64,000 nt of DNA, taken from NCBI GenBank assembly GCA_030650025.1, contig JAUSEN010000009.1, positions 93,144 to 157,143 on the forward strand. Direction: 5' to 3'. Position numbers and translations under genes: made by a program. Below, piece after piece: positions 15,126 through 49,312 of the stretch (positions are counted from its first letter, which is position 1; every line of letters starts with the position of its first letter). This DNA comes from Candidatus Magasanikiibacteriota bacterium. Lineage in GTDB: Bacteria; Patescibacteriota; Patescibacteriia; Magasanikbacterales; GWA2-37-8. The notes beneath the pieces were generated by a model, which was given only the letters and a program-made list of their open reading frames with translations, was not told the origin of the DNA and searched no databases.

Positions 15126-15611
15126 ATGGCTGGTAGATCTCATTTTGATAGCGTCCATGTGCCAAGCGACGAGCTTATTACAGATGCTCAAGGGCACTGG
15201 ACAGGCACCAGTGCTTATCCACGCACTACCGAGCCAGGCACAGGCATGCCCGAAGCGCCCAGCTTTGCTTCTGACCCCGAACAACAGGCCACGTTTAATG
15301 AATTAGTAGAGAAGATGCAAGCCACTAGCGACCGAGTTGCTTGGTATAAATTAGCGGATGATCTTAAAGACTTGCTTAGAGAAACAGGCAACGATGCTTC
15401 GGAAGAAGCCGTCGAAGATATTGTTGGGTTACCTCCCCACAGGGAGACTGCCCAAGACGTAGCGAACGCTCAAAGAGTCGCGGCAGAAGTAGCTGTGGGA
15501 AAAAGGCAGAGGAGAAAAAAAGAACCCCGCGTCAATGTAGTGGGTGGCACATTTCACAGCCACGCGGAAGTTGCCCAAATGCCCCGGCCTGCCAAAGAGA
15601 AAGCGGCTTAA
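15126..15611 (+). CDS. hypothetical acidic protein
   Basis: A 161 aa ORF with no motif. Confidence 0.35.
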   Translation: MAGRSHFDSVHVPSDELITDAQGHWTGTSAYPRTTEPGTGMPEAPSFASDPEQQATFNELVEKMQATSDRVAWYKLADDLKDLLRETGNDASEEAVEDIVGLPPHRETAQDVANAQRVAAEVAVGKRQRRKKEPRVNVVGGTFHSHAEVAQMPRPAKEKAA

Positions 15612-16918
15612 AAGCCGTCGCTGGATTTTGATATCCAATTTTTTATAAAATCCGCAAATTTATCCTGCATAATCGCTTCCCGCGCTCGGCGCATTAAATT
15701 GAGCATAAAATGCAAGTTGTGAATACTAGCGAGGCGCAAAGCCGTGATTTCTTCGGCCGCGAAGAGATGGTGAAGGTACTGGCGTGAATAATTTTTACAC
15801 GTAGAGCACTCACAACTCTCGTCCACCGGACGGGAGTCTTTTTTATATTCAGAATTTTTTATATTCAAGCGATTTTTGCTAGGAGGGTCAAAAGTAAAAA
15901 GCATACCGTGGCGCGCTAGGCGCGTAGGCGCCACGCAGTCAAACATGTCGGCTCCGTGCTCCACCGCGATCAACAAGTCGGCTGGGTTTAGCCCCACGCC
16001 CATGGCGTAATGCGGTTTGTTTTCCGGGATGAGTGGATACACCCAATCTAAAATCTCCGCCGTCGCTGGCATATTATATCCGATACTTTCGCCGCCAATC
16101 GCTATGCCGTCAAAATCTAAACTGGAAATAAAGCGCGCCGATTCTTCGCGCAAGCTTTTATGCTGTCCGCCCTGGATAATGCCAAAGATAAAGCGTTGAT
16201 GTGGCCAGTCCTCCCCCTCGCCCCCTCCTTTGCAAAGGAGGGGGGACGACGATTCCCCTCCCCTTCGCAAAGGGGAGGGCGGCCCGCCCGAATCGCTACG
16301 CGAAGCGTTGCGGGCGGGGGGTGGGGTGTCGCTCAAGCGTAGGTGCTCAGCCAAACTTCTTTTTGCCCACGCATGCGTGCGTTCCATGGCGGCGCGGGCG
16401 TATTCTGGCGCGGCGTCGTCTGGCGTGCACTCGTCAAAGGCCATAATAATATCAGCGCCCAGTTTGTGTTGGATTTCAATAGAAGTTTCGGGAGTAAAGC
16501 GGTGCGTAGAGCCATCAATATGGCTCGTGAACGTAACGCCGTCATCATCGATTTTTACGAGGCGTGCTTGCGACACCACCCCCTTTTTCTTCTGCAACCC
16601 CAAACTAAAAACCTGGAACCCTCCCGAATCAGTCAAAATCGGGTGCGGCCAGTTCATGAATTTATGTAGCCCACCTGCGGCATAAACCAAATCTTCACCT
16701 GGCCGCAAATGCAAATGATACGTGTTGCCGAGAATTACGGGCGCTTGTAAATTTTCTAAATCTTGGCTGTCAAGCGTCTTGACTGCTCCCTGCGTTCCGA
16801 CTGGCATAAACGCCGGAGTTAAAATATCGCCATGGTCCGTATGCATAACGCCGGCGCGCGCCTGCCTGCCGGCAGGCAGGCCTGCGCCGCTGGTTTTTTG
16901 GAGTTCAAAAAATGGCAT
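15608..16918 (-). CDS. tgt: queuine tRNA-ribosyltransferase carrying two in-frame palindromic-element insertions
   Basis: The Tgt core motifs are present (PAFMPVGT, zinc site CxCxxC...H). An extra segment of about 40 aa and an 8-aa PAGRQ segment are both encoded by GC-rich palindromic repeats. Confidence 0.9.
   Translation of the reverse strand: MPFFELQKTSGAGLPAGRQARAGVMHTDHGDILTPAFMPVGTQGAVKTLDSQDLENLQAPVILGNTYHLHLRPGEDLVYAAGGLHKFMNWPHPILTDSGGFQVFSLGLQKKKGVVSQARLVKIDDDGVTFTSHIDGSTHRFTPETSIEIQHKLGADIIMAFDECTPDDAAPEYARAAMERTHAWAKRSLAEHLRLSDTPPPARNASRSDSGGPPSPLRRGGESSSPLLCKGGGEGEDWPHQRFIFGIIQGGQHKSLREESARFISSLDFDGIAIGGESIGYNMPATAEILDWVYPLIPENKPHYAMGVGLNPADLLIAVEHGADMFDCVAPTRLARHGMLFTFDPPSKNRLNIKNSEYKKDSRPVDESCECSTCKNYSRQYLHHLFAAEEITALRLASIHNLHFMLNLMRRAREAIMQDKFADFIKNWISKSSDGF
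16211..16332. repeat. GC-rich tri-hairpin element copy C1, inserted in frame within tgt
   Basis: About 92% identical over roughly 115 nt to the copy at 20764..20882 in uvrD. It contains the palindromes cccctcctttgcaaaggagggg and cccgccc...gggcggg. Confidence 0.85.
16861..16880. repeat. 20-nt perfect palindrome cctgcctgccggcaggcagg inside the tgt N-terminal codons
   Basis: The same 16-nt core, cctgccggcaggcagg, recurs at 30931..30946 in the rpsJ leader. Confidence 0.7.
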
Positions 16919-16990
16919 AGAATAGCGTCATTATACTGTTTTTGAATTTTTAATCAAGTTAGTGTAAGATGTAGATGTAACAAATTTATT

Positions 16991-17704
16991 TTGATTATAA
17001 ATCATATGGGAGAATCAGAGAACAGTGGCGAGGGGTTAGCGCCGAGGACAACGCCTGGCCGGGTAGTTGCCGAAAGTCACGATGAATTTATGGCTAGGGT
17101 GGGCGTGGCTGGCCAAGTGCCCGGCCCGGAGATTGCGCGCGAATTGCCAGCGCCATCTGTTTTAGTTTTTGATCAAGATGGATCTGTCCAAATCGATGGT
17201 AAAACTTTGCGCCCCTGGGGAGATGTTTTTGCCGGTGGCGAATTAAATCAGTATAATGGCGATCTTCAGGAGGGCTTGGTAGCCACTCCGCCTTTAGTTG
17301 AATATGATCCCGCCACCAAAATATTAAAACTAACCGCCGCCGGCCTTACTATGGTAAGAGCCAAAAATAGCGCGCCGCGCGTGGCCAAAAAAATAAAAAT
17401 AAAATCAGCTAGAGAAAAAGAAATTGAAGACGAACCAGATGCCCGGACCAGAATACTAAGCGCCCTCGGCGCTACTGCCGAAGCTATTAAAAAAGCGGGG
17501 CTACAAATTAGAATCACAGTGCTTAAAGAAACTAAACGCACGGCCACCCACCAAGTCGCGCTCGTTCAGCCCAATCGCTGGAAAAATGGCAAAGTCAGAG
17601 TGGAGCATAGCACAGACAGTCTTTTTTACCTTGATTTGAGCGACGAGAAAAATTTTCGGCGTGGGATTAAAGCCATTTCTGATTATATTGGCACCAAGTT
17701 TTAA
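16991..17704 (+). CDS. hypothetical protein
   Basis: A 237 aa ORF with no motif. Confidence 0.4.
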   Translation: MIINHMGESENSGEGLAPRTTPGRVVAESHDEFMARVGVAGQVPGPEIARELPAPSVLVFDQDGSVQIDGKTLRPWGDVFAGGELNQYNGDLQEGLVATPPLVEYDPATKILKLTAAGLTMVRAKNSAPRVAKKIKIKSAREKEIEDEPDARTRILSALGATAEAIKKAGLQIRITVLKETKRTATHQVALVQPNRWKNGKVRVEHSTDSLFYLDLSDEKNFRRGIKAISDYIGTKF

Positions 17705-17717
17705 ACTAATATTTTAT

Positions 17718-18920
17718 ATGGCGAAAGTAGAAGGACAGAGGGGCAAAAGAGGAGGAAGTAACCAAGGGCCCACCAGAAGCATGCTGGAACGAGGGCTCCG
17801 CTTCACCGGCGTTTTAGTTGCTGGTGGAATTATTTTTTCTGGGGATGATAATTTGCCTGCTCATACTGCGGATACAAATATTTCGGCTTTAACTTCTAGA
17901 GCCAGTGGCAATCCAGAAAAACGCGAGCCCGAATCAGAGCCGCTAACAATAGATCTGCAGGAAAAAGGTGGCCTGGTGCCACAAGAAGCTAAAGATAAGC
18001 TCATGGGAGTGCTTCGCCCCCAAATCGAGCGCCAAATAACTAGGATGTTGGCGATCGAGAAAGCTCGCTCCGGCTCCGCGCCTATTAAAACCGAAGTTCA
18101 AATAATTATTGAAACTGGTTTAATCGAAGTCGGAGCCGTGGCTCCGGAAGAGCGCTCCCAGATAATAGAAGTCGTGGATCCGGCAATTAAAGACGCGACA
18201 GAATTTTTTAATCACTCCAGTTTAGTCGCCCCCAAAATAACCCACGATTTTCCTCCTCATGACGGACAAGTTAAGCTTGCCAAGCTTCCCGCCTATAGAC
18301 AAGATACCAGCTTGCCCCTCATGTATGTAAAACACCCCAAAAATGTTTATAATTTTTCTTTTACGGTTAAGGTAGGTGAGAGCAGTTTTTCCGATCATGC
18401 TCAAATGGTTTACCATAATCGTGCGGCTGGCACCATTAACCGGGAAATGAATTTTGAGTACGATGATGGTCACCGCTTAATTGGCGCGACATTTTCTCGT
18501 GACCCTGTTTTAATTATGACCGACCAGGCTCGCTCTAGAGAAGACCTGGCCGCGTTTGCAACGGCTGAGATGTTACACGCCGTACTTTCTACTGTGAGTG
18601 ATAGTAGGATGCTTTCTGGCCTCATGAGCAGTGACCTTACCTCTGGCGCACAACTGGGTGCATTTTTTGCTCCTTACCATAAAACAGAAGAAGCAGTTGT
18701 GCATGCCGCTAGCCGCATTTGGATGGAGTCGTATATTGCCAAAACTGGCATAAAGTTTTCCGGAACAATGCTAGATTCTTCAACCAAAATGTACCCAGGC
18801 CTGGCTAAATTATTAGATAAAGTTCCTCATACCCAAGCTGGTGCCAACCAGCTTATTGATTGGTATATCAACAGCCCAGAAAAAATTCAAAGAATTATTG
18901 GAACTGAAATCTCCCGATAA
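17718..18920 (+). CDS. hypothetical membrane-anchored protein
   Basis: An N-terminal TM segment (GVLVAGGIIF) is followed by a large soluble domain. The stop overlaps the uvrD start (ATAATGA). Confidence 0.45.
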   Translation: MAKVEGQRGKRGGSNQGPTRSMLERGLRFTGVLVAGGIIFSGDDNLPAHTADTNISALTSRASGNPEKREPESEPLTIDLQEKGGLVPQEAKDKLMGVLRPQIERQITRMLAIEKARSGSAPIKTEVQIIIETGLIEVGAVAPEERSQIIEVVDPAIKDATEFFNHSSLVAPKITHDFPPHDGQVKLAKLPAYRQDTSLPLMYVKHPKNVYNFSFTVKVGESSFSDHAQMVYHNRAAGTINREMNFEYDDGHRLIGATFSRDPVLIMTDQARSREDLAAFATAEMLHAVLSTVSDSRMLSGLMSSDLTSGAQLGAFFAPYHKTEEAVVHAASRIWMESYIAKTGIKFSGTMLDSSTKMYPGLAKLLDKVPHTQAGANQLIDWYINSPEKIQRIIGTEISR

Positions 18921-21298
18921 TGATCAATTTCTCTCAAGAACTTAACCCCGAACAACTTCGGGTCGTTACCGAGGGCGACGGCCCTTGTTTAGTTTTGGCC
19001 GGGGCCGGCTCGGGCAAAACCCGTACCATCACCTATCGCGTCGCGCATCTTCTAGAACAGGGAATAAAACCTGAAGAAATTCTCCTCGTTACCTTTACCA
19101 ACAAAGCCGCGGCCGAAATGAAACGGCGGGTAGAGCAAATTACAGCGTTGTCATCCCGAGCGGAGCCGAGGGATCCCTCCGCTCGCTCGCTACACTCGCT
19201 CGGTCGGGATGACAGTGTGGTTTTACCCTGGTCCGGCACGTTCCATTCGATCGGTTATCGGCTACTACGAATGTATGGTGGATTATTAGGTTATAAAAAT
19301 AATAATGCCCTGAACCGGAGCGGAGCGACTGGTTCGGGGTTTACGGTTTTAGACAGCGACGATTCAGAGTCGCTTATTAAACTTTGTATTAAAGACGTGA
19401 AAAGCGACGAAGCTGGGAAACGTTTTCCGTCCGCGGCGGTGGTAGCCGCGGTTATTAGTTTTAGCCGCAACGCCGAAATTTCTATTCAAGAAATTTTGGC
19501 CAAACGGTTTGAACAATGGCAAGCTTTCGAAAGTGAGATTTTAACAATTAGCAATTTATATATTGGCAAGAAAATGGCCGCGAATGCCCTGGACTTTGAC
19601 GATTTGCTCACTAAGACTCTCGCCCTTGTAAAAATGCCTCAAATCAAGCAAAAATATTCCGAGCAATTTAAGTATATTTTAGTGGACGAATACCAAGATA
19701 CTAATAGAATTCAGGCCGCGCTTATCAAAGAATTATCCGGCGTTCATAATAATGTGCTAGTGGTGGGGGACGATGCCCAGAGTATTTATAGCTTTCGCGC
19801 CGCGGATATCGAGAATATTTTAGGGTTTGAAAAAGAATACCCGGGAGCCAAAATTTTTAAACTTGAAACTAATTATCGCTCCACTAAACCAATTTTAGAC
19901 GTGGCGAATTCTGTTATCGAGAATAACGTTGACCAGTATCAGAAAAATTTACGAGTAGTCATAGACCCCCTCCTAAAAAGGAGGGGGCAGGGGGAGGTGT
20001 CGCCCTTACCAGTTCTTCAACCCGCTGTTGATTCCTCTGGCGAAGCCATGTTTATCGCCAATAAAATCGAGGATCTATTAAACAAAAAAACTGCGGCGCC
20101 CGAAATCGCGGTTTTATTCCGCGCCGCGTTTCACTCGCAGGCCTTAGAAGTTGAACTGGTGAGTAGAGGCATAGATTATGACTATCGTGGCGGCGTGCGC
20201 TTTTTTGAGCGCGCCCACGTGAAAGATATTTTGTGTTATCTCCGGATTTTTAATAATTTAGCGGACACGGCCGCGTGGCTACGCGTTCTGACGCACGAAG
20301 AAGGCATCGGCCCCGCGGCGGCGGAAAAAATTATTGAAGCGGTGCGCCCGCTGTCTGTCATCCCCGCGGAAGCGGGGATCCAAAACGTTGACACGGCAGA
20401 TTCCCGCTTACGCGGGAATGACAACGTTGATCAAGTCGAATCAATCGGCCGTTCCGTTCTCACCGGCCGCGCTCTTGGGGGTTTTGAAAATTTTTTACAA
20501 ATTTGGAATGTAATGTTGGGTTGTAGGGGCGCGGTTTCCGCGCCCCAGGGCGGGGCAACCCCGCCCCTACGCCCGCGACCAAATGAACTCGTGCTTGCGA
20601 TTTTAAAATCTCCATACCAAGAATATTTAGAATCCGAATACGTAGACAGCAAAGATCGTCAGCAAGATTTGCTCCAGCTCGCCGAGTTTGCCAAGCGCTT
20701 TGACAATTTAGAAGAATTTTTAGCTTCGGCCACGCTCCAAGAATCGTTTCGGACGATCGACACCTCCCCCAGCCCCTCCTTTGCTAAGGAGGGGGGCCGC
20801 GATTCCTCTCCCCTTAGCAAAGGGGAGGGCGACCCGCCCGAATCGCTACGCGAAGCGTTGCGGGCGGGGGGTGGGGTTTCGCATCGATCTAGAATCATTC
20901 TCTCCACCATCCACCAAGCCAAGGGCCTAGAGTGGGAGGCGGTGTTTGTGATGAATCTATCCGCCGGCGCTTTCCCCAACGACCGCGCCAGCCGCGAAGA
21001 TAAAGGGTTAGAAGAAGAGCGCCGGCTTTTTTACGTGGCAGTAACGCGCGCGAAAAAATATTTGTATTTAACCTACCCCATGGCGGGCGGCAGTTTTGGC
21101 GACTTTCTCTCTGGGCCAAGTATTTTTATTAACGAAATCAAGCCCGGCCTAGTTGAGGACCATTCGCTGTTGTTAAAAGGCTCTTCGGTTTTTAATTCTG
21201 GTGAATTAACATATGTCAGCGAAGAGGATGAGCCCTTTTCTAGTAAACCAATTAAAATTAAGCCCGGTAGTTTGCTTAGAAACATCGAAGATCTTTAA
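18920..21298 (+). CDS. uvrD: UvrD/PcrA-family ATP-dependent DNA helicase with five in-frame palindromic-element insertions
   Basis: A 792 aa ORF with Walker A AGAGSGKTRTIT, motif Ia WSGTFHSIGYRLL, motif II DEYQDTN and C-terminal VAVTRAKKYLYL. The insertion positions are listed as separate repeats. Confidence 0.9.
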   Translation: MINFSQELNPEQLRVVTEGDGPCLVLAGAGSGKTRTITYRVAHLLEQGIKPEEILLVTFTNKAAAEMKRRVEQITALSSRAEPRDPSARSLHSLGRDDSVVLPWSGTFHSIGYRLLRMYGGLLGYKNNNALNRSGATGSGFTVLDSDDSESLIKLCIKDVKSDEAGKRFPSAAVVAAVISFSRNAEISIQEILAKRFEQWQAFESEILTISNLYIGKKMAANALDFDDLLTKTLALVKMPQIKQKYSEQFKYILVDEYQDTNRIQAALIKELSGVHNNVLVVGDDAQSIYSFRAADIENILGFEKEYPGAKIFKLETNYRSTKPILDVANSVIENNVDQYQKNLRVVIDPLLKRRGQGEVSPLPVLQPAVDSSGEAMFIANKIEDLLNKKTAAPEIAVLFRAAFHSQALEVELVSRGIDYDYRGGVRFFERAHVKDILCYLRIFNNLADTAAWLRVLTHEEGIGPAAAEKIIEAVRPLSVIPAEAGIQNVDTADSRLRGNDNVDQVESIGRSVLTGRALGGFENFLQIWNVMLGCRGAVSAPQGGATPPLRPRPNELVLAILKSPYQEYLESEYVDSKDRQQDLLQLAEFAKRFDNLEEFLASATLQESFRTIDTSPSPSFAKEGGRDSSPLSKGEGDPPESLREALRAGGGVSHRSRIILSTIHQAKGLEWEAVFVMNLSAGAFPNDRASREDKGLEEERRLFYVAVTRAKKYLYLTYPMAGGSFGDFLSGPSIFINEIKPGLVEDHSLLLKGSSVFNSGELTYVSEEDEPFSSKPIKIKPGSLLRNIEDL
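19149..19214. repeat. TGTCAT...ATGACA element (66 nt) in frame within uvrD between motifs I and Ia
   Basis: tgtcatcccgagcg ... cgctcggtcgggatgaca forms terminal inverted repeats. It encodes about 22 extra residues (SSRAEPRDPSARSLHSLGRDDS) relative to UvrD homologues. Confidence 0.75.
19966..20005. repeat. mini GC-rich hairpin element (ccccctcctaaaaaggaggggg plus tail) in frame within uvrD
   Basis: It resembles the first hairpin and the 3' tail of the 115-nt tri-hairpin element. Confidence 0.6.
20356..20423. repeat. TGTCAT...ATGACA element, CCCGCG subtype (copy B3), in frame within uvrD
   Basis: tgtcatccccgcggaagcggggatc ... gattcccgcttacgcgggaatgaca has the same architecture as the intergenic copies at 6925 and 42756. 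Confidence 0.8.
20523..20570. repeat. GTAGGG...CCCTAC composite palindrome in frame within uvrD
   Basis: gtaggggcgcggtttccgcgcccc-agggcggggcaaccccgcccctac shows nested hairpins. Its ends match the intergenic palindromes at 8123 and 30770. Confidence 0.7.
20764..20882. repeat. GC-rich tri-hairpin element copy C2, in frame within uvrD
   Basis: Near-identical to the copy at 16211..16332 in tgt and in the same plus-strand orientation. It is therefore translated in the forward frame here and in the reverse-complement frame in tgt. Confidence 0.85.
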
Positions 21299-21465
21299 AT
21301 TACTTATTTTAGAAACCCTAAAATAGGCAGCACGGAAGTTAAATATATTTATAAAATTTTTTTAGTTTATATACCACCTGTATCCGGGTGGTTTTTTTGT
21401 TAACGACCCCCGCCAAAGGCGGAGTGTCAGTTAACAAACCGCCTCTAGCGGATCTCTCCACTCTC

Positions 21466-21495: not shown

Positions 21496-21593
21496 ACTTT
21501 GTTTTTCGTGGGGCATCTTGCCTCTCGGAAGCCCGGGCGCGACCCCGGTAAAAATCGCGTAACCGCCAACGACGTCTTTTTTCGGAGGAATTC

Positions 21594-22019
21594 ATGAGCC
21601 CCATCACCCGCACCACCCTGGTGTTCGTCATCGGGCTCCTCGCGGGCCTGCCGCTCGGCCACCTCCGCCAGGAGGTTGCGGATCTCCGCCAGGTGGCGGA
21701 GCTCGAGCGCTTCGTCGCGGCCCATCACAATTTCGTCGTGGCCCATCACAATACGGTCGACACGCTTCTCGACTCGGCCATGCACTGCACGGAGAACTTA
21801 CTCGTGCTGGGGTACTCCACGGTGCATGTCTCCGACTCCTGCCAACGAGAGATCGCCGCGCAGATCCCACGGGCAACGTGGCTGGTCAGCGCGGTGGACA
21901 GCTGCGCTTCGGAGGAGGATGGCGAGGACTCGTCCTTCGACCCGCAGGTCGTCCCGAACGACGAACTGCGCCGGAACTCCACCCGCATCATCCCCATCCC
22001 GAGCCGCTGGCCGCGCTGA
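21594..22019 (+). CDS. hypothetical membrane-anchored protein (high-GC island 1)
   Basis: A 141 aa ORF with about 68% GC, a strong SD (GGAGGAATTCATG) and an N-terminal TM helix. Confidence 0.5.
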   Translation: MSPITRTTLVFVIGLLAGLPLGHLRQEVADLRQVAELERFVAAHHNFVVAHHNTVDTLLDSAMHCTENLLVLGYSTVHVSDSCQREIAAQIPRATWLVSAVDSCASEEDGEDSSFDPQVVPNDELRRNSTRIIPIPSRWPR

Positions 22020-22032
22020 GGAGGCGCACAAG

Positions 22033-22182
22033 ATGGAACTTGTTTTCGCGCTCGTCGTGCTCTACCTGCTGGGGAGGTTCGGTGCCACGATCTTCATCGG
22101 GGGGATGAAGATCGTGTTCTACATCTTCCTCGGCCTCGTGGCCCTGACCATCCTCGGCGCCATCGCCGCCCTGCCGCGCTAG
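22033..22182 (+). CDS. small hydrophobic protein, 49 aa (high-GC island 1)
   Basis: SD GAGGAGG is 7 nt upstream of the ATG. The product has two predicted TM helices. Confidence 0.45.
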   Translation: MELVFALVVLYLLGRFGATIFIGGMKIVFYIFLGLVALTILGAIAALPR

Positions 22183-22240
22183 ACTCGGAATCTAGCGCGC
22201 AAGTCGTACGGATATGCTCTGGCGGTGTTCTCAAAAACCA

Positions 22241-22297
22241 CCCGATCATGTCCCAGTCAACGCAAGTATTTGTGTTGAGTGGGATCGGGTGGTTTTT
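22241..22297 (+). terminator. hairpin plus T-tract terminator (ccacccgatc...gatcgggtgg ttttt)
   Basis: A long inverted repeat followed by TTTTT. Confidence 0.55.
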
Positions 22298-22323
22298 AAA
22301 CCCGGTTATTTAGGAGGAGAGAA

Positions 22324-22662
22324 ATGATCCGCGCGAAGTTTTTGGTCGTAGACGACGACCCGGATAACAGGGAGGTCGTCGCCAGTGTCCTTAGGGACAA
22401 GGGCTTCGAAGTAGATGAGGCGTTGTGCGCGCAGGACGCGCTCACCCTGCTCGGGCAGGTGGAGTATGACGTCCTGATCACGGACGTCGACATGCCGGGC
22501 ATGAGCGGCCTCGAGTTGGTGCGCCTGGTGCGCGCCAAGCCGGAAAGCCCCTACGCGGTTGTGATGTCCGGCCGGGCCATGGCTCAGTTGGCCGCAGCTG
22601 CCGGAGCCGAGGAGTTCTTCGAGAAGCCGTTCGACCTCGAAGAGTTTCTCGCCGTGTTCTAA
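22324..22662 (+). CDS. stand-alone response-regulator receiver domain (CheY-like), high GC
   Basis: A 112 aa ORF with the acidic pocket VVDDD, the phospho-acceptor Asp in LITDVDMPGMSG and a conserved Lys in EKPFD. SD AGGAGGAGAGAAATG. Confidence 0.8.
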   Translation: MIRAKFLVVDDDPDNREVVASVLRDKGFEVDEALCAQDALTLLGQVEYDVLITDVDMPGMSGLELVRLVRAKPESPYAVVMSGRAMAQLAAAAGAEEFFEKPFDLEEFLAVF

Positions 22663-22832
22663 CAGCCGCGTTCAGTTAGCCTCTGCCTACACACCGCGCC
22701 ACCGTGTCCCGCCAGGCGGGATCCTTCCAAAGACGCTCCTGGCGTCAACTCCGGGCCAGGAGTTATTTCTGGAAGAATTCGCGTCGGTAGCAGGTGGCCT
22801 ACCCGGCCGACGCATTTTTCCTCTAGTCACGA

Positions 22833-23006: not shown

Positions 23007-23441
23007 ATGCCCACAATTAGTCAGCTTATCAAACGACCCCGCAAAGCTAAACAGCGCAAAACCAAAACTCCGGCTTTACAATTTACCATCGACAACCTCC
23101 ACCGCCGCGTTACGCCTTTTAGGAAAGGGGCGGCTTTTAAGCGTGGTGTTTGTACCAAGGTGTATACCACCACTCCCAAAAAACCAAACTCCGCGCTCCG
23201 TAAAGTGGCCAAGGTCCGCCTAAGTAACGGCACCGAAGTTATCGCCTATATTCCGGGCGAAGGCCACAACCTCCAAGAGCACTCCATTGTGCTTATTCGC
23301 GGCGGCCGGGTGAAGGATTTACCAGGGGTGCGCTACCACATTGTGCGGGGCGTTTACGACGCCCAAGGAGTCGCGAATCGTCGCCGCGGCCGTAGCCTTT
23401 ACGGCAACAAGCGCCCGAAAGAGGCGAAAGCTAAGAAATAA
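23007..23441 (+). CDS. rpsL: 30S ribosomal protein S12
   Basis: [13 protein letters not shown] is the canonical S12 start. The track ORF begins 42 nt earlier. Confidence 0.95.
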
Positions 23442-23474
23442 TGCGCCTCTTCGGCGCATCCGCCGACGAGGCGG
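23441..23474. repeat. double-hairpin repeat atgcgcctcttcggcgcatccgccgacgaggcgg (copy G1)
   Basis: The sequence is 33/34 identical to the sequence after the rpsJ stop (31281..31314). Confidence 0.8.
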
Positions 23475-26391: not shown

Positions 26392-26529
26392 ATGCGGACC
26401 TCACCGACCACGTCCCGCAGCACCGGCTCCCCGCCCGTCACCGCCACCACCGAGCCGAAGACCGAGAAGAAGGCCCCCCCGAAGCGCGCGACGAAGACCA
26501 CCACCGGCGGCATCACCAAGGCGAACTAG
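26392..26529 (+). CDS. small Thr/Lys/Pro-rich ORF (45 aa) with strong SD, high-GC island 2
   Basis: GAAAGGAGG lies 7 nt upstream of the ATG and terminator hairpins follow. It falls below the ORF-track cutoff. Confidence 0.35.
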   Translation: MRTSPTTSRSTGSPPVTATTEPKTEKKAPPKRATKTTTGGITKAN

Positions 26530-26555
26530 CTCCCGCACGGGAGCATCACCCCACA

Positions 26556-26582
26556 CCCCCGACCGCCCAGCGCGGTCGGGGG
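26556..26582 (+). terminator. GC hairpin cccccgaccgc-ccag-cgcggtcggggg
   Basis: An 11-bp stem. Confidence 0.5.
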
Positions 26583-26676
26583 TCGTGGCTAAAATTCAAA
26601 ACCCTCAATCTCCTGTTAGCCACAAATTCTTGCGGCCAGCAGGAGGGTTTTGAAAAGAATTCTCTATAAAAACAAT

Positions 26677-26710
26677 CCCCCGAGCATAGTCGAGGGGGGT
26701 TGTTTTTTTG
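26677..26710 (+). terminator. hairpin cccccgagcatagtcgagggggg plus TTGTTTTTTTG
   Basis: A G/C-clamped stem followed by a T-run. Confidence 0.55.
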
Positions 26711-26720
26711 TTTTAAATGC

Positions 26721-26749
26721 TTGACTGTTTAATATCTGCACGTTACGAT
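26721..26749 (+). promoter_or_regulatory. promoter TTGACT-17-TACGAT upstream of the desaturase
   Basis: Correct spacing, with SD AAGGAGAG 25 nt downstream. Confidence 0.5.
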
Positions 26750-26780
26750 TAAGATGGATAAAACAACCAAGGAGAGTGCC

Positions 26781-27659
26781 ATGCCCACGACCAACGCTGG
26801 TTCCAACCCGCCCCGCCCCGCCCGTCTGCCCCGCCAGCCCGATGAGAACCTCCGTGTCGTTGGCGCCTTGCCGTTCTTCACCATCCACCTCGCCGTTATC
26901 TTCGGCGTCTTCCTGGTGGACTTCTCGTGGAAGGCGGCGATCTTGTGCGCCGTGGCGTACTACGTGCGCATGTGGGGAATCGCCGCCGGATTCCACCGAT
27001 ATTTGGCGCACCGTAGCTTCAAAACGTCTAGAGCCTTCCAGTTCTTCTTGGCCTTGCTCGGAACCATGGCCGCGCAGCGCGGCCCGCTCTGGTGGCTTGG
27101 GAAGCACCGCGAGCATCACCGCAACACGGATACGCCGCTCGATGTGCACTCGCCTTCGGTCCAGGGGTTTTGGTGGGCGCACATGTTGTGGTTCTTGTGC
27201 GCCAAGCACGACGGTACGGCGGACAAGATCAAGGCCGAATTTCAGGCTTACCCGGAAATCGGGTGGCTCGACCGGAACTATCTCATTCCGCCGCTCGCCC
27301 TCGCCCTCGCTCTCCTCGCCGTGTGGGGCCTCCCCGGCCTCTTCTGGGGGTTCTTCGCCTCCACCGTGCTCTTGTGGCACGGAACCTTTACGGTGAACTC
27401 CGTGATGCACCTCGAGAGCGTTGGCCAGCGGCGCTACCCGACACCGGATACCAGTCGCAACGTCTGGTGGCTCTGGCTCGTCACCCTCGGCGAGAATTGG
27501 CACAACAACCACCACCACTACCAGGGTGCCGAGAGCCAGGGCTTTTTCTGGTGGGAGGTGGATCTCGCCCACTACGGCCTCAAGGTCTTGTCGTGGTTCG
27601 GCTTGGTGTGGGATATCAAGAAGCCCACGCCCGCGGCCCTCGCCCCGCCGACTGCGTAG
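26781..27659 (+). CDS. membrane acyl-CoA/acyl-lipid fatty-acid desaturase (delta-9, DesA3/stearoyl-CoA desaturase family)
   Basis: Three histidine boxes are present: HRYLAHRS, HREHHR and HNNHHHY, with TM segments between them. The region is about 66% GC. An alternative start is at 26754. Confidence 0.85.
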   Translation: MPTTNAGSNPPRPARLPRQPDENLRVVGALPFFTIHLAVIFGVFLVDFSWKAAILCAVAYYVRMWGIAAGFHRYLAHRSFKTSRAFQFFLALLGTMAAQRGPLWWLGKHREHHRNTDTPLDVHSPSVQGFWWAHMLWFLCAKHDGTADKIKAEFQAYPEIGWLDRNYLIPPLALALALLAVWGLPGLFWGFFASTVLLWHGTFTVNSVMHLESVGQRRYPTPDTSRNVWWLWLVTLGENWHNNHHHYQGAESQGFFWWEVDLAHYGLKVLSWFGLVWDIKKPTPAALAPPTA

Positions 27660-27960
27660 CGGCCACCAGCGCTAATCATTATGCCCCTACCCTTGGCTTC
27701 AGCGGGCAGGAGGCTTCACAAGGTCTCCTCGCTCGTTATAACGGAAAAAATTTTTCGCTATAACGAGGGAGATCTTGGAGAAAATAAATAAGATAAATCG
27801 CCCCGACGTTATGCCGGAGCGGTTTTGTTTTTATATCGGATTTTATATCGATATCTTGACTTTTAGCAATTTTTATGATATTATCTTTTTCAACCACGTG
27901 GCAGTTTGGCTCCGGATCTACCGGCGCTAACCCGCCCCTCAACCCTCTTGAGAGGGAAAC

Positions 27961-28158
27961 ATGACGCGTTCCGATCGCCATCGCATCGAGGAGGCCCGCA
28001 CGGGCCGCGACCAGCCGCGCGCCGCGGCCACCACCCTGGGCAGTTCGCCTGACGCCGAACCGGGCGGCTCCACACCCCGTGGCACGAAGCCCGGCTTCAA
28101 GCTCGTGAAGCGCGGCACCCGCCGCACCGACCGGCGCCCGGGGGGAGGCTGCTTCTAG
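27961..28158 (+). CDS. small basic Arg-rich ORF (65 aa), high-GC island 2
   Basis: The product MTRSDRHRIEEARTGRDQPR is preceded by the hairpin ccctcttgagaggg. Coding status is uncertain. Confidence 0.3.
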   Translation: MTRSDRHRIEEARTGRDQPRAAATTLGSSPDAEPGGSTPRGTKPGFKLVKRGTRRTDRRPGGGCF

Positions 28159-28415
28159 CGGCCACCCCTGCCGCCCCTCCGCGAAGGAACCACCGGGGCG
28201 CCCAGTCATTCGACTGGGCGCCCCAAAACTAAAAATTAATTCCCTGCTTGTCTTAATTAAGATGAGCGGGGATTTTTTATTCGGGGATTACTTAGCCTGT
28301 TATTTAGTCCTTGCGTTTTTTTATAATTTGTATTAGTATGGTTCTCATTGTCGTGCCATCTTGCCCGCACTTTCGCGGGCCGATTGGCCGATTCGCCTCT
28401 GAAAGGAGGCTTCCC

Positions 28416-28736
28416 TTGAGCAAAATCATCAGGCACACCCGCGTCAGAGGGCACGTCACCAACGGCGACGTCGCCGCGGAGCTCGACCCCGCCGCGGTCG
28501 CCCGCTCCCAGCGGGCGTTCCGGGAGGAGTGCGGCGGGCCCCGTCGCCCGCGGCTCGCCCCCTCGCCCGCGCCCCAGGCGCAGGAACCGCGGCCGTCCAC
28601 CGATGCGGCCATCGCCGAGCTCGAGCGCAAGCTGGCGGCGCGCGGGATCATCACCCCCCGCGCCACCTCCGCGCCGCAGCCGGGCACGGCTCCGGGCGAG
28701 CCCCGCCCGGCCGGTTCCACGCCCGAGGCCTTTTAG
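28416..28736 (+). CDS. hypothetical Pro/Ala-rich protein with TTG start, high-GC island 2
   Basis: GAAAGGAGG lies 7 nt upstream of the TTG, the same SD context as the ORF at 26392. Confidence 0.35.
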   Translation: MSKIIRHTRVRGHVTNGDVAAELDPAAVARSQRAFREECGGPRRPRLAPSPAPQAQEPRPSTDAAIAELERKLAARGIITPRATSAPQPGTAPGEPRPAGSTPEAF

Positions 28737-28777
28737 GCCAGAGGGCGCCCCCCAGTAGGGGGGCAAGCAACATAACG

Positions 28778-29343: not shown

Positions 29344-29372
29344 GTAGAGACGCCCCGCCGGGGCGTCTCTAC
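29344..29372 (+). terminator. 13-bp perfect hairpin gtagagacgcccc-gcc-ggggcgtctctac
   Basis: It lies immediately after the stop of the preceding ORF. Confidence 0.55.
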
Positions 29373-30758: not shown

Positions 30759-30769
30759 ATTATTTTTTT

Positions 30770-30797
30770 GTAGGGGGCGCATATATGCGCCCCCTAC
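30770..30797 (+). terminator. perfect palindrome gtagggggcgcatatatgcgccccctac (GTAGGG...CCCTAC family) after tuf
   Basis: A 12-bp G/C-rich stem followed by AAAATTTTG. Confidence 0.7.
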
Positions 30798-30822
30798 AAA
30801 ATTTTGTTCTTTTAAGACTAAC

Positions 30823-31281
30823 ATGAACGCCACTGCTCCAAAAACTACCGCGGTCAAACATCATGCGCCCAAGGCCAGTGCCGCTAAAGCCGCTGTTACC
30901 AAAGTAGCCGTACTCGCCAAAGGCGCCATGCCTGCCGGCAGGCAGGGACCCGCCTCGGGCGGGAAAAAAGAAGAAGCGGTGAGCCGTATTCGCTTAAAAA
31001 TTCGCGCTTACGACAGCCGCATTATCGACCAGGCCACCAAGACTATTGTTGATACCGCGAACCGCTATGAAGCCAAAGTAGTGGGCCCCGTGCCCTTGCC
31101 GACCGAAAAGACTAAATTTACTGTTAACCGCTCCAGTTTTATTGACAAAAATGCCCGCGAACAGTTTGAGATGCGCACCCACAAGCGATTAATCGATATA
31201 ATCAACGCCAATCCGCAGTGTGTGGACGCTCTTATGAGCCTGAACCTCCCGAGCGGCGTGGATGTAGAAATTAAGATGTAA
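30823..31281 (+). CDS. rpsJ: 30S ribosomal protein S10, with Ala/Lys-rich N-terminal extension or leader containing a palindromic insert
   Basis: The S10 core ([11 protein letters not shown]...) starts at the GTG at 30979. The in-frame upstream 52 codons (alternative ATG at 30928) carry the cctgccggcaggcagg palindrome. Confidence 0.85.
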
Positions 31282-31314
31282 TGCGCCTCTTCGGCGCATC
31301 CGCCGAAGAGGCGG
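31281..31314. repeat. double-hairpin repeat copy G2
   Basis: atgcgcctcttcggcgcatccgccgaagaggcgg, matching the copy at 23441. Confidence 0.8.
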
Positions 31315-31479: not shown

Positions 31480-31569
31480 TGTCATTCTGAGGTCGCCTAA
31501 GGCGACCGAAGAATCTAAGCGTAAAAACCCTTAAAATAACTCAGATCTTTCGCTACGCTCAAGATGACA
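31480..31569. repeat. TGTCATTCTGAG...CTCAAGATGACA intergenic palindromic element (copy A1)
   Basis: A 90 nt element with an internal extra hairpin ggtcgcctaaggcgacc, lying between rpsJ and rplC. Confidence 0.8.
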
Positions 31570-35146: not shown

Positions 35147-35226
35147 TGTCATTCTGAGCGAAGCGAAGAATCTAAGCGCTTACAACGCTTAATCAACTTA
35201 GATCTTTCGCTGCGCTCAAGATGACA
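35147..35226. repeat. TGTCATTCTGAGCGAAGCGAAGAATC...GATCTTTCGCTGCGCTCAAGATGACA element (copy A2)
   Basis: An 80 nt element between rplV and rpsC. Its terminal ATGACA provides the spurious track start of rpsC. Confidence 0.85.
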
Positions 35227-40750: not shown

Positions 40751-40830
40751 TGTCATTCTGAGCGAAGCGAAGAATCTAAGCGTCTCAACGCTTATAACCA
40801 CTTAGATCTTTCGCTTCGCTCAAGATGACA
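40751..40830. repeat. TGTCATTCTGAGCGAAGCGAAGAATC...GATCTTTCGCTTCGCTCAAGATGACA element (copy A3)
   Basis: An 80 nt element between rplO and secY, about 90% identical to copy A2. Confidence 0.85.
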
Positions 40831-42755: not shown

Positions 42756-42824
42756 TGTCATTCCCGCGCCAGCGGGAATCTAGTTTTTTTAAAACGCTGG
42801 ATCCGCGCTGGCGCGGGGATGACA
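42756..42824. repeat. TGTCATTCCCGCG...GGGGATGACA element (copy B2)
   Basis: It lies between the hypothetical ORF and adk. The track start of adk (42819) lies inside the repeat. Confidence 0.8.
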
Positions 42825-49213: not shown

Positions 49214-49312
49214 CTGGCAAAGCTAGTGTTTCCGAGCGGGTTTGACCCGCCCAGGGCGGGTCACCCCGAGGCCTCGCGGCCGAGGAAAGCGAGGAGACGC
49301 TAGCTTTGCCAG
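49214..49312. repeat. 99-nt GC-rich element with 13-bp terminal inverted repeats ctggcaaagctag...ctagctttgccag, between parA and parB
   Basis: The interior is about 70% GC with nested hairpins (gacccgcc-cag-ggcgggtc). It is unlike canonical parS. Confidence 0.65.

Follow-up and report, generated by a model that had tools for sequence, protein, structure and literature searches.

In-frame hairpin repeats of several families in the tgt and uvrD genes of a Candidate Phyla Radiation bacterium

Introduction

How do two genes for conserved enzymes come to contain GC-rich palindromes that are read straight through as protein? The question is raised by a 64,000-nucleotide stretch (the window) of contig JAUSEN010000009.1 (positions 93,144–157,143; assembly GCA_030650025.1) from a Candidatus Magasanikiibacteriota bacterium of the Candidate Phyla Radiation (CPR). 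In the window, tgt and uvrD carry GC-rich hairpin-forming segments in their coding sequence, including two copies of a 'tri-hairpin' element. An earlier note, made from the sequence alone, had likened these segments to the Rickettsia palindromic elements (RPEs) and had supposed that nothing of the kind was described for a CPR-like lineage. A literature search of limited coverage on MITEs (miniature transposons with inverted repeats at their ends), palindromic elements and in-frame elements in CPR/Patescibacteria found nothing relevant. The inserts in tgt and uvrD extend translated in-frame hairpins of the repetitive extragenic palindrome (REP) type to the CPR, whose tiny, gene-dense genomes would be expected to leave little room for selfish DNA.

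Results

Eight hairpin inserts lie in frame in tgt and uvrD

Both host genes are intact, with full-length Pfam matches, and on either side of each insert the conserved helicase or TGT sequence continues unbroken.

15608–16918, minus strand: tgt (queuine tRNA-ribosyltransferase), an open reading frame (ORF) of 436 aa (PF01702, E 4.6e-143) hosting two inserts
18920–21298, plus strand: uvrD/pcrA-type helicase, an ORF of 792 aa (PF00580, PF13361, PF13538) hosting six inserts

UvrD, at 792 aa, compares with an orthologue median of 688 and a minimum of 664 (120 best hits), and Tgt, at 436 aa, with a usual orthologue length of ~385 aa. The six separate UvrD inserts amount to ~100 extra residues altogether. 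Together the two genes hold eight inserts, and rpsJ holds one more (z, z score of the predicted fold; HP, hairpin):

16211–16332, in tgt: family A composite, element in plus orientation, read on the minus strand, ...PPPARNASRSDSGGPPSPLRRGGESSSPLLCKGGGEGE...; modules HP1 16221–16244, HP2 16256–16279, HP3 16283–16318, G-rich tail 16319–16332
16852–16889, plus, in tgt: N-terminal palindrome, core GCCTGCCGGCAGGC, read as GAGLPAGRQARA and containing GAGLPAGRQ
19149–19214, plus, uvrD insert 1: 66-nt TGTCAT...ATGACA inverted dimer (TGTC-tagged REP type), read as SSRAEPRDPSARSLHSLGRDD; z −3.8
19304–19339, plus, uvrD insert 2: hairpin CCCTGAACCGG...CTGGTTCGGGG, read as NALNRSGATGSG; z −2.8
19966–20005, plus, uvrD insert 3: one E-type unit, CCCCCTCC-loop-GGAGGGGG, with GGGGGAGGTGTCGC as its tail; z −4.1
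20356–20423, plus, uvrD insert 4: two NTS/dRS3-like hairpins forming an inverted dimer (SRM; TGTC-tagged REP), translated as VIPAEAGIQNVDTADSRLRGND; z −6.4
20523–20570, plus, uvrD insert 5: two GC hairpins within GTAGGGG...CCCCTAC (GTAG-tagged REP-like inverted pair), read as CRGAVSAPQGGATPPL; z −4.5
20764–20882, in uvrD: family A composite, element in plus orientation, read on the plus strand, ...SPSPSFAKEGGRDSSPLSKGEGDPPESLREALRAGGGVS...; modules left tail 20759–20770, HP1 20773–20794, HP2 20805–20828, HP3 20833–20868, right tail 20869–20882
30930–30943 (core), plus, in rpsJ (ORF 30823–31281): GCCTGCCGGCAGGC palindrome read as MPAGRQG

Besides the two composites, the earlier note had named four of these uvrD inserts (19149, 19966, 20356 and 20523). 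All four are significant hairpins (z −3.8 to −6.4) at gaps in the orthologue alignment, but the list had missed the insert at 19304–19339 and the palindromes in tgt (16852–16889) and rpsJ (30930–30943). The tgt N-terminal palindrome adds ~5 residues relative to orthologues, and 'LPAGRQ' peptides stand at insert sites of other orthologues (P0031, P0032, P0170). In rpsJ (S10), the palindrome lies within an Ala/Lys-rich N-terminal extension of ~50 residues. A predicted peptide spanning an insert junction reads ...SPLSKGEGDPPESLREALR....

The closest orthologues (64–67% identity; P0002, P0003, P0122) lack the inserts, which coincide with alignment gaps in orthologues; in an alignment with PcrA (1PJR), gaps fall at UvrD inserts 1–3. 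A syntenic relative (L001) encodes a UvrD of 686 aa and a Tgt of 387 aa, with no GC-rich hairpins in either gene. In the AlphaFold2 model of UvrD, residues 81–98 (insert 1), 128–138 (insert 2), 337–364 (insert 3), 482–501 (insert 4), 538–549 (insert 5) and 608–655 (family A) are coil with a predicted local distance difference test score (pLDDT) below 50. In Tgt the same holds for residues 201–238, between a helix (171–197) and a strand (243–248). Each low-confidence segment is flanked by confidently modelled secondary-structure elements. The gaps in PcrA and the models both agree with the reading of the inserts as surface loops.

None of the eight inserts in tgt and uvrD shifts the reading frame; by our own arithmetic the chance of this is (1/3)^8, or ~1.5e-4, if insert length is unconstrained. 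The intragenic copies are open in the frame that is used, and the AT-richer intergenic copies of one family (family C, below) are stopped in six of six frames; this is the survivorship filter expected of tolerated insertions. These comparisons show that the inserts are secondary insertions in pre-existing genes, in frame and in predicted loops.

In many more distant CPR orthologues, the same Tgt and UvrD loops are filled by different hairpin families in different frames. The Tgt loop reads VILSETKDPS...PQND, VIPAKAGIQ, SSRASRSDEGS or LPLTKGE in other orthologues, and the N-terminus LPAGRQ. The variety of families and frames at the same loops therefore argues for repeated colonisation of permissive loops and against ancestral sequence. 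The earlier note had held that the same segments at the same positions in unrelated lineages would mark them as ancestral; those positions hold other families and frames instead, save at one UvrD site (the 'LSSRA' junction, see Discussion).

UvrD orthologues P0002, P0013 and P0017 have a 10-residue insert, A(S/R/L)LRQ(G/D)(Y/F)GGQ, at the position following residue 721 of the window UvrD, which lacks it. This insert is probably another translated hairpin family.

The element shared by tgt and uvrD is a composite of three modules

The two large copies lie where the earlier note had placed them, in the same plus orientation. Their identity, estimated there at ~92%, is 93.7% over 111 nt (16222–16332 against 20773–20882; blastn, E 4e-41), and a repeat search of the window aligned the pair at 92% over 92 nt plus 85% over 34 nt. 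The copies are translated in opposite senses, as ...SPLSKGEGDPPESLREALRAGGGV... in uvrD and, from the complement, as ...ARNASRSDSGGPPSPLRRGGESSSPLL... in tgt, and the peptides first quoted for them are the actual translations. Neither copy has a stop in the frame used. The further observation that no stop arises in either orientation is less striking than it seems, because five of six frames of the tgt copy and three of six of the uvrD copy are open.

Each copy folds as a three-hairpin multibranch structure closed by a terminal stem (DNA folding energies −45.6 and −40.3 kcal/mol; z = −4.7 and −4.6), and none of 200 shuffles equalled either. The 'tri-hairpin' element is not one primary unit but a composite of three smaller modules. 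Its left part (GACACCTCCCCC plus CCCCTCC-loop-GGAGGGG) is an inverted copy of a 'hairpin + G-rich tail' unit, and its right part is a unit of the same kind in forward orientation. In both copies, hairpin 3 (HP3) is nested between the right-unit hairpin and its tail. uvrD insert 3 is the HP1 + tail module of family A with its orientation reversed (blastn matches at 20758–20776 and 16210–16231). Both family A copies have this arrangement, the same spacers and, in HP3, a C-to-A change that breaks the stem; therefore the composite was copied whole from one of the two genes to the other.

The TGTCAT inserts belong to a known REP superfamily

Inserts 1 and 4 of uvrD share their organisation with intergenic elements of the window:

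6925–6991, intergenic: NTS-like inverted dimer with perfect 25-nt arms, both fitting the SRM pattern; z −11.6; no containing ORF
42756–42824, intergenic: NTS-like inverted dimer directly upstream of a gene start
31480–31569, 35147–35226 and 40751–40830, intergenic: family C inverted dimer, TGTCATTCTGAG..., with stops in all six frames in all three copies

The dimers at 6925–6991 and 42756–42824 are clearly related to insert 4 (blastn, E 6e-8 to 1e-5). TGTC, an accepted variant of the CGTC tag of one REP superfamily (PMC3733652), starts every arm of 6925–6991, 20356–20423, 42756–42824, 19149–19214 and the three family C copies. REPs of this superfamily often have TGTC as tag, a stem of 8–9 bp starting with AT, a loop of 4–5 nt and a CCA tail, and occur mostly as dimers; among its members are dRS3 of Neisseria and the Rickettsia elements RPE-4 and RPE-6 (Di Nocera, De Gregorio & Rocco 2013, PMC3733652). 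The arm at 6964–6991 (minus strand) reads TGTC-ATTCCCGC-GAAA-GCGGGAAT-CCAG, and its 8-bp stem, 4-nt loop and CCA tail are the CGTC-1 layout. Other arms have CTG or CCAA tails, and family C and the 19149 element have more diverged stems.

In Neisseria, the NTS contains dRS3 and is bound and cut as single-stranded DNA (ssDNA) by SsnA, a 94-aa GIY-YIG nuclease (Chenal et al. 2025, PMC11893778). SRM-type motifs flank ssn genes in many phyla (PMC11893778). The published SRM pattern, HGTCWYN(0-2)YYVSBRHN(0-5)WNVSBRGN(0-2)RNCYNB, has four matches in the window (6925 plus, 6964 minus, 20396 minus and 42797 minus) against 0.07 expected from 100 dinucleotide shuffles, and only six chance, non-hairpin matches in 929 kb of other loci. 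One of the four is the right arm of insert 4 (20396–20423, minus); the partner arms narrowly miss the pattern. Save for one or two flanking or loop positions, the four arms equal the Neisseria NTS consensus CGTCATTCCCGCGMAVGCGGGAATCYRG, and the intragenic NTS-like arms retain the upstream GTC and the C after the palindrome that SsnA requires.

The TGTCAT inserts belong to the CGTC/TGTC-tagged REP superfamily (dRS3/NTS/SRM, RPE-4/-6). The RPE parallel therefore holds and is closer than the earlier note had claimed, and the novelty is correspondingly smaller.

No known RNA family applies to the inserts. An Rfam search of the whole window at gathering thresholds returned two tRNAs only, a permissive search of 15500–21400 gave only matches below threshold (FtrB, 27 against 66 bits; whalefall-1, 21 against 37; mir-188), and terminator and promoter scans found nothing at the inserts. 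The FtrB match (Francisella small RNA B, RF02748; 27.4 bits, E 0.26) aligns full-length to the NTS-like uvrD dimer (20326–20444, minus), which hints that the FtrB family is perhaps itself built on a TGTC-tagged REP dimer.

GTAG-tagged hairpins and a single E-type unit

Three intergenic palindromes share their tag with uvrD insert 5, and one intergenic hairpin has the architecture of insert 3:

8121–8153, intergenic: GTAG-tagged palindrome TGTAGGG...CCCTACA, starting TGTAGGGACAGGGCA...
30766–30801, intergenic, between tuf and rpsJ: GTAG-tagged palindrome, starting TGTAGGGGGCGC...
29344–29372, intergenic: GTAG-tagged palindrome, starting GTAGAGACGCC...
from 20523, inside uvrD: GTAG-tagged hairpin, starting GTAGGGGCGCGG...
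57305–57335, intergenic: one E-type unit, CCCCTCC-AGTTTT-GGAGGGG, with GAGGGGTTAGG as its tail

GTAG-tagged REPs form the other REP superfamily, tied to REP-associated tyrosine transposases (RAYTs; PMC3733652). The palindromes at 8121–8153 and 30766–30801 resemble insert 5 (20523–20570) in their TGTAGGG/CCCTACA termini and hairpin architecture only, with no blastn similarity, and family membership across the GTAG-tagged hairpins, as judged from these features, is weak. The unit at 57305–57335 has the 'CCCCTCC-loop-GGAGGGG + G-rich tail' architecture in common with 19966–20003. The intergenic relatives proposed in the earlier note thus differ in standing: those at 6925 and 42756 are clear, but those at 8121 and 30766 agree in termini and architecture only and that at 57305 in architecture only.

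HP3 recurs across phyla beside a small GIY-YIG gene

A scan of GTDB species genomes with a 20-mer of HP3 gave at least 118 stretches with 121 matches, and all figures for HP3 below are among the matches listed. A 36–37-nt hairpin, CCCGCCCGCATCGCTACGCGAAGCGTTGCGGGCGGG, accounts for 101 of the 121 matches and is almost invariant across phyla (CCCGCCCGmATCGCTACGCGAAGCGTTGCGGGCGGG). Its carriers are many CPR classes, Verrucomicrobiota (including Akkermansia metagenome-assembled genomes), Bdellovibrionales and some Gammaproteobacteria. Some copies are nested in further copies of the hairpin or in hairpins of other kinds; some adjoin fragments of tRNA-Val genes or lie within them; some touch the 5' end of transfer-messenger RNA (tmRNA); and some stand in frame within genes. 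In 37 of the 101 copies the hairpin lies in frames open for ≥50 codons on both sides, compared with 64% of random positions. Pfam-verified host proteins are PheT, a class II aminoacyl-tRNA synthetase, a ComM/YifB-like Mg-chelatase family protein and TsaD. Across hosts HP3 is read in four frames (ARNASRSDAGG, ARIATRSVAGG, PPATLRVAMRAG and PPASLREALRAG), so what is conserved is the DNA and not the peptide.

A single-domain GIY-YIG ORF of 78–86 aa (PF01541, E 1e-13 to 7e-17) is present in 21 of 118 HP3 loci, and in 19 of these 21 HP3 lies within 0–300 bp of that gene; random placement in an 8-kb locus would give ~10%. In a reciprocal check, four GIY-YIG proteins were picked by protein homology alone, and all four genes had HP3 directly downstream, in the order smpB, GIY-YIG, hairpin, tmRNA. 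The best solved relatives of the HP3-linked proteins are the UPF0213 proteins 1zg2 and 1ywl. HP3 and the GIY-YIG gene mirror the NTS–ssnA layout, and by this analogy suggest a second nuclease–hairpin pair. Literature searches for GIY-YIG with smpB and tmRNA, for the HP3 sequence and for its peptides found nothing, and PMC11893778 and PMC3733652 do not describe such a pair.

We tentatively propose, as a possibility rather than an expectation, that HP3 is the cognate site of Ssn-like GIY-YIG ssDNA nucleases that form a clade spanning phyla and not described before. In CPR this clade would reside at smpB – GIY-YIG – hairpin – tmRNA, and in Verrucomicrobiota at tRNA-Val genes. Solo hairpins would spread by an ssDNA- or hairpin-aimed mechanism into loops of essential genes (in four frames), tRNA genes and other hairpins. 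If so, CPR genomes would be heavily colonised by several nuclease-linked hairpin families.

Several of these loci have features of their own. In CPR of several classes (L022, L060, L075, L129–L138), the order smpB – 81-aa GIY-YIG – HP3 – tmRNA is conserved, and the run of G at the hairpin's 3' end touches the tmRNA 5' end or overlaps with it; in L075, HP3 occupies 4344–4380 and the tmRNA 4378–4802 (ARAGORN). Ten Verrucomicrobiota loci (L009, L011, L019, L021, L023, L041, L067, L070, L113, L119) have HP3 inside or beside fragments of tRNA-Val (tRNA-Thr in L070), with an intact tRNA copy and a GIY-YIG gene adjoining the hairpin. The order in L113 (~760–1400) is 5' tRNA fragment, HP3, intact tRNA, GIY-YIG gene, 3' tRNA fragment, as if an element had integrated into a tRNA gene and duplicated part of its target. 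L137 and L138 encode an identical GIY-YIG protein (P0276) and are structurally polymorphic at HP3: ~20 nt past the hairpin, L138 has a second GIY-YIG ORF (MFYTYVLKSKRDNNLYVGW...) and L137 the tmRNA, with a second GIY-YIG gene after it. In L029 (672–905), the GIY-YIG ORF is itself interrupted in frame by HP3 (...IIPARNASRSDADRY...).

Other features of the window

Between tgt and uvrD, 16991–18920 holds two ORFs (237 and 419 aa) with no Pfam match; both are missing from the syntenic closest relative (L001), in which the tgt–uvrD gap is ~300 bp. A near-identical 36-nt double hairpin, GCGCCTCTTCGGCGCATCCGCCGAMGAGGCGG, lies at 23438–23474 and 31278–31314, directly after an rpsL-like ORF and rpsJ; it could be a further repeat family, or else a terminator or regulatory hairpin that ribosomal protein operons have in common. 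In the parA–parB spacer, two GC-rich hairpins stand next to each other at 49231–49296 (TGACCCGCCCAGGGCGGGTCA and CCGAGGCCTCGCGGCCGAGG). Two islands of high G+C (21500–22700 and 26400–28750; 40-nt windows at ≥75% GC, 2-kb bins at 0.53–0.56, window 48.5%) may be foreign or otherwise atypical DNA.

Discussion

A proposed origin of the inserts

We consider it likely that the inserts are non-autonomous, hairpin-forming, selfish REP-like repeats of several families, secondarily inserted, which persist only where the frame is kept, no stop arises and a surface loop receives them, and which are translated as disordered loops. Five families would be involved: (i) TGTC-tagged inverted dimers of the CGTC-REP/dRS3/NTS/SRM superfamily, which includes RPE-4 and RPE-6; (ii) GTAG-tagged hairpins; (iii) 'CCCCTCC-loop-GGAGGGG + G-rich tail' units; (iv) the 36–37-nt HP3 hairpin; and (v) the GCCTGCCGGCAGGC palindrome. 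The tri-hairpin element would be an inverted pair of type (iii) units, with type (iv) nested between the right unit and its tail, copied whole between tgt and uvrD. The hairpins would be recognised on ssDNA; small single-domain nucleases of the GIY-YIG (Ssn-like) type would act in trans to spread or maintain types (i) and (iv), and RAYT-type transposases would possibly do so for type (ii). Selection would remove copies that break genes, leaving those that are in frame, stop-free and in surface loops, and the disordered, Pro/Gly/Ser/Arg-rich peptide would be a by-product of the DNA.

Several points weigh against this explanation. No GIY-YIG gene was found in the 64-kb window or in the 14-kb relative (regular expression, jackhmmer, tblastn). 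Nor was a RAYT or other transposase gene found in either, for the window by a weak test (tblastn with an IS200 TnpA sequence, whose only match, to rplR, was by chance); a cognate enzyme in the source genome is therefore hypothetical. GIY-YIG proteins are nucleases and are not known to have strand-transfer or 'paste' activity, and so would not by themselves account for the copying. No target-site duplications are visible at any copy. The composite is known from its two copies in tgt and uvrD only, and a search of JGI metagenomes for the HP2–HP3 junction gave nine chance matches in GC-rich DNA and no composite. With their stem-breaking C-to-A change, the window HP3 copies may be decayed relics. 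Several orthologues carry a TGTCAT-type insert at the same UvrD site in the same frame, with a common 'LSSRA' junction after residue 75, and an older shared insertion is possible there. Translation of the inserts as loops is itself inferred from sequence alone.

Alternative explanations

The inserts might instead be classical MITEs or REPINs, moved by a tyrosine transposase (RAYT or IS200/IS605-like) or an insertion sequence (IS) transposase encoded elsewhere, the GIY-YIG link being incidental. Families A to D contain REPIN-like inverted dimers, imperfect terminal complementarity closes the family A structure, and the GTAG-tagged (D) hairpins bear the tag that is RAYT-linked in PMC3733652. Against this, the same weak search detected no Y1 or IS transposase in the window, and the target-site duplications that would mark MITEs are missing even though the termini are palindromic. 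No dedicated transposase was found for CGTC REPs in PMC3733652, these REPs are tied to SsnA in PMC11893778, and in 19 of 21 loci the gene beside HP3 codes for a GIY-YIG protein and not for a transposase. We regard a transposase-driven origin as unlikely.

Alternatively, the hairpins could be kept for their use to the host, either as ssDNA-nuclease sites that limit recombination of incoming DNA, as with NTS/SsnA, or as mRNA structure elements, in which case the clustering in tgt and uvrD would be functional. The NTS/SsnA system influences natural transformation, and copies of the NTS are grouped near certain genes (PMC11893778). In the window, 6 of 18 GC-rich perfect hairpins fall inside the 5.7-kb tgt–uvrD stretch, compared with 1.6 expected; REPs recur in repair genes of other phyla; and the bases that SsnA requires are kept in the intragenic NTS-like arms. 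However, the empty sites in the closest relatives mean that the genes work without inserts, and insert families and positions vary between lineages. No nuclease gene was seen in the window, no insert is terminator-like, and the clustering may equally reflect the many permissive loops of a large multidomain helicase. The data can be explained without any benefit to the host; such a role is conceivable, but as the cause of the pattern it strikes us as quite improbable.

Ordinary lineage-specific loops, evolved at the protein level, would account for the variable loop lengths at these positions in many orthologues and for the common 'LSSRA' start in some. An ancestral protein loop is contradicted by 111 nt at 94% identity in two unrelated genes read in opposite senses; in addition, intergenic copies exist, all inserts are strong palindromes and the closest orthologues are without them. 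We give such an origin hardly any credence. Removal of the inserts before or during translation (tiny introns, ribosomal bypassing) or an assembly artefact has nothing direct in its favour beyond the capacity, in principle, of stable hairpins to promote bypassing, and we reject both as next to impossible, given that frame-keeping and the lack of stops would be superfluous if inserts were removed, that no intron or other RNA family scored above threshold, and that genes containing the same hairpins recur in many assemblies made independently by different projects.

Significance

The observation made in the earlier note is confirmed, and its interpretation as palindromic elements colonising genes is supported, with the refinements given above. 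A single essential-type helicase tolerates all six of its inserts, and the case is an unusually dense one. One locus joins RPE-like in-frame elements, CGTC- and GTAG-tagged REPs and the Ssn/NTS nuclease system, and HP3 provides a concrete candidate for a second nuclease–hairpin pair, bearing on how such hairpins spread. The inserts inflate protein lengths and give rise to recurrent low-complexity peptides (VIPAxAGIQ, ARNASRSDAGG, SPLxKGE, LPAGRQ), which can mislead the annotation, clustering and phylogeny of CPR proteins.

Comparison with known systems

The elements of the window resemble the small dispersed repeats of cyanobacteria, which reportedly include very small hairpins, nest within one another and are present or absent at orthologous sites, but the sequences and hosts differ.

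With the REP/REPIN–RAYT systems, the TGTAGGG... hairpins share the GTAG tag and a REPIN-like inverted-dimer architecture. They differ in that no RAYT gene was seen in the window, in that the three or four hairpins have only the tag in common, and in that REPs are mostly extragenic but one of these hairpins is located within uvrD.

RPEs are, like the inserts here, in-frame palindromic repeats in unrelated housekeeping genes at fold-compatible positions, predicted to be translated (Ogata et al. 2000, 2002, as summarised in PMC10969869 and PMC3733652). Classical RPE-1 is ~150 bp long and encodes a conserved peptide in one frame, whereas the modules here are smaller, nested or dimerised, and read in several frames and both orientations; the RPE host is an obligate intracellular alphaproteobacterium and the host here a CPR bacterium. 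The link to RPE-4 and RPE-6 is indirect, through their assignment to the CGTC families in PMC3733652.

The NTS/SRM–SsnA system shares with the window the SRM pattern, fitted by four arms, and with the HP3 family a layout in which a gene for a single-domain GIY-YIG protein (~81 aa here) stands next to its hairpin. HP3 does not fit the SRM pattern, however, and no ssn gene was found in the window. The paper describing the system (PMC11893778) makes no mention of CPR, of intragenic or in-frame copies or of RPEs.

A further close match is with the CGTC/TGTC-tagged REPs. Shared features are the TGTC tag, an 8-bp stem starting with AT (ATTCCCGC/GCGGGAAT), a 4-nt loop, a CCA-like tail on some arms, the inverted-dimer organisation, the occurrence of intragenic dimers and the choice of repair genes, including a UvrD/REP helicase, as hosts. 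Intragenic CGTC REP dimers encode 20–30 residues, and the hosts of many are tRNA-related genes or repair genes, including those for UvrD/REP helicases (PMC3733652). That survey covered eight phyla for tagged REPs (five for CGTC) and no CPR/Patescibacteria genome; here, in contrast, two dimers lie in one uvrD, alongside four inserts of other families. In-frame hairpins of REP/RPE type in repair genes are thus not new, and selfish DNA of this kind has been described in Rickettsia, Neisseria and further bacteria. What appears to be new is that such hairpins are present, and at this density, in a CPR genome, together with the composite architecture and the GIY-YIG-linked hairpin that recurs across phyla and stands at smpB–ssrA.

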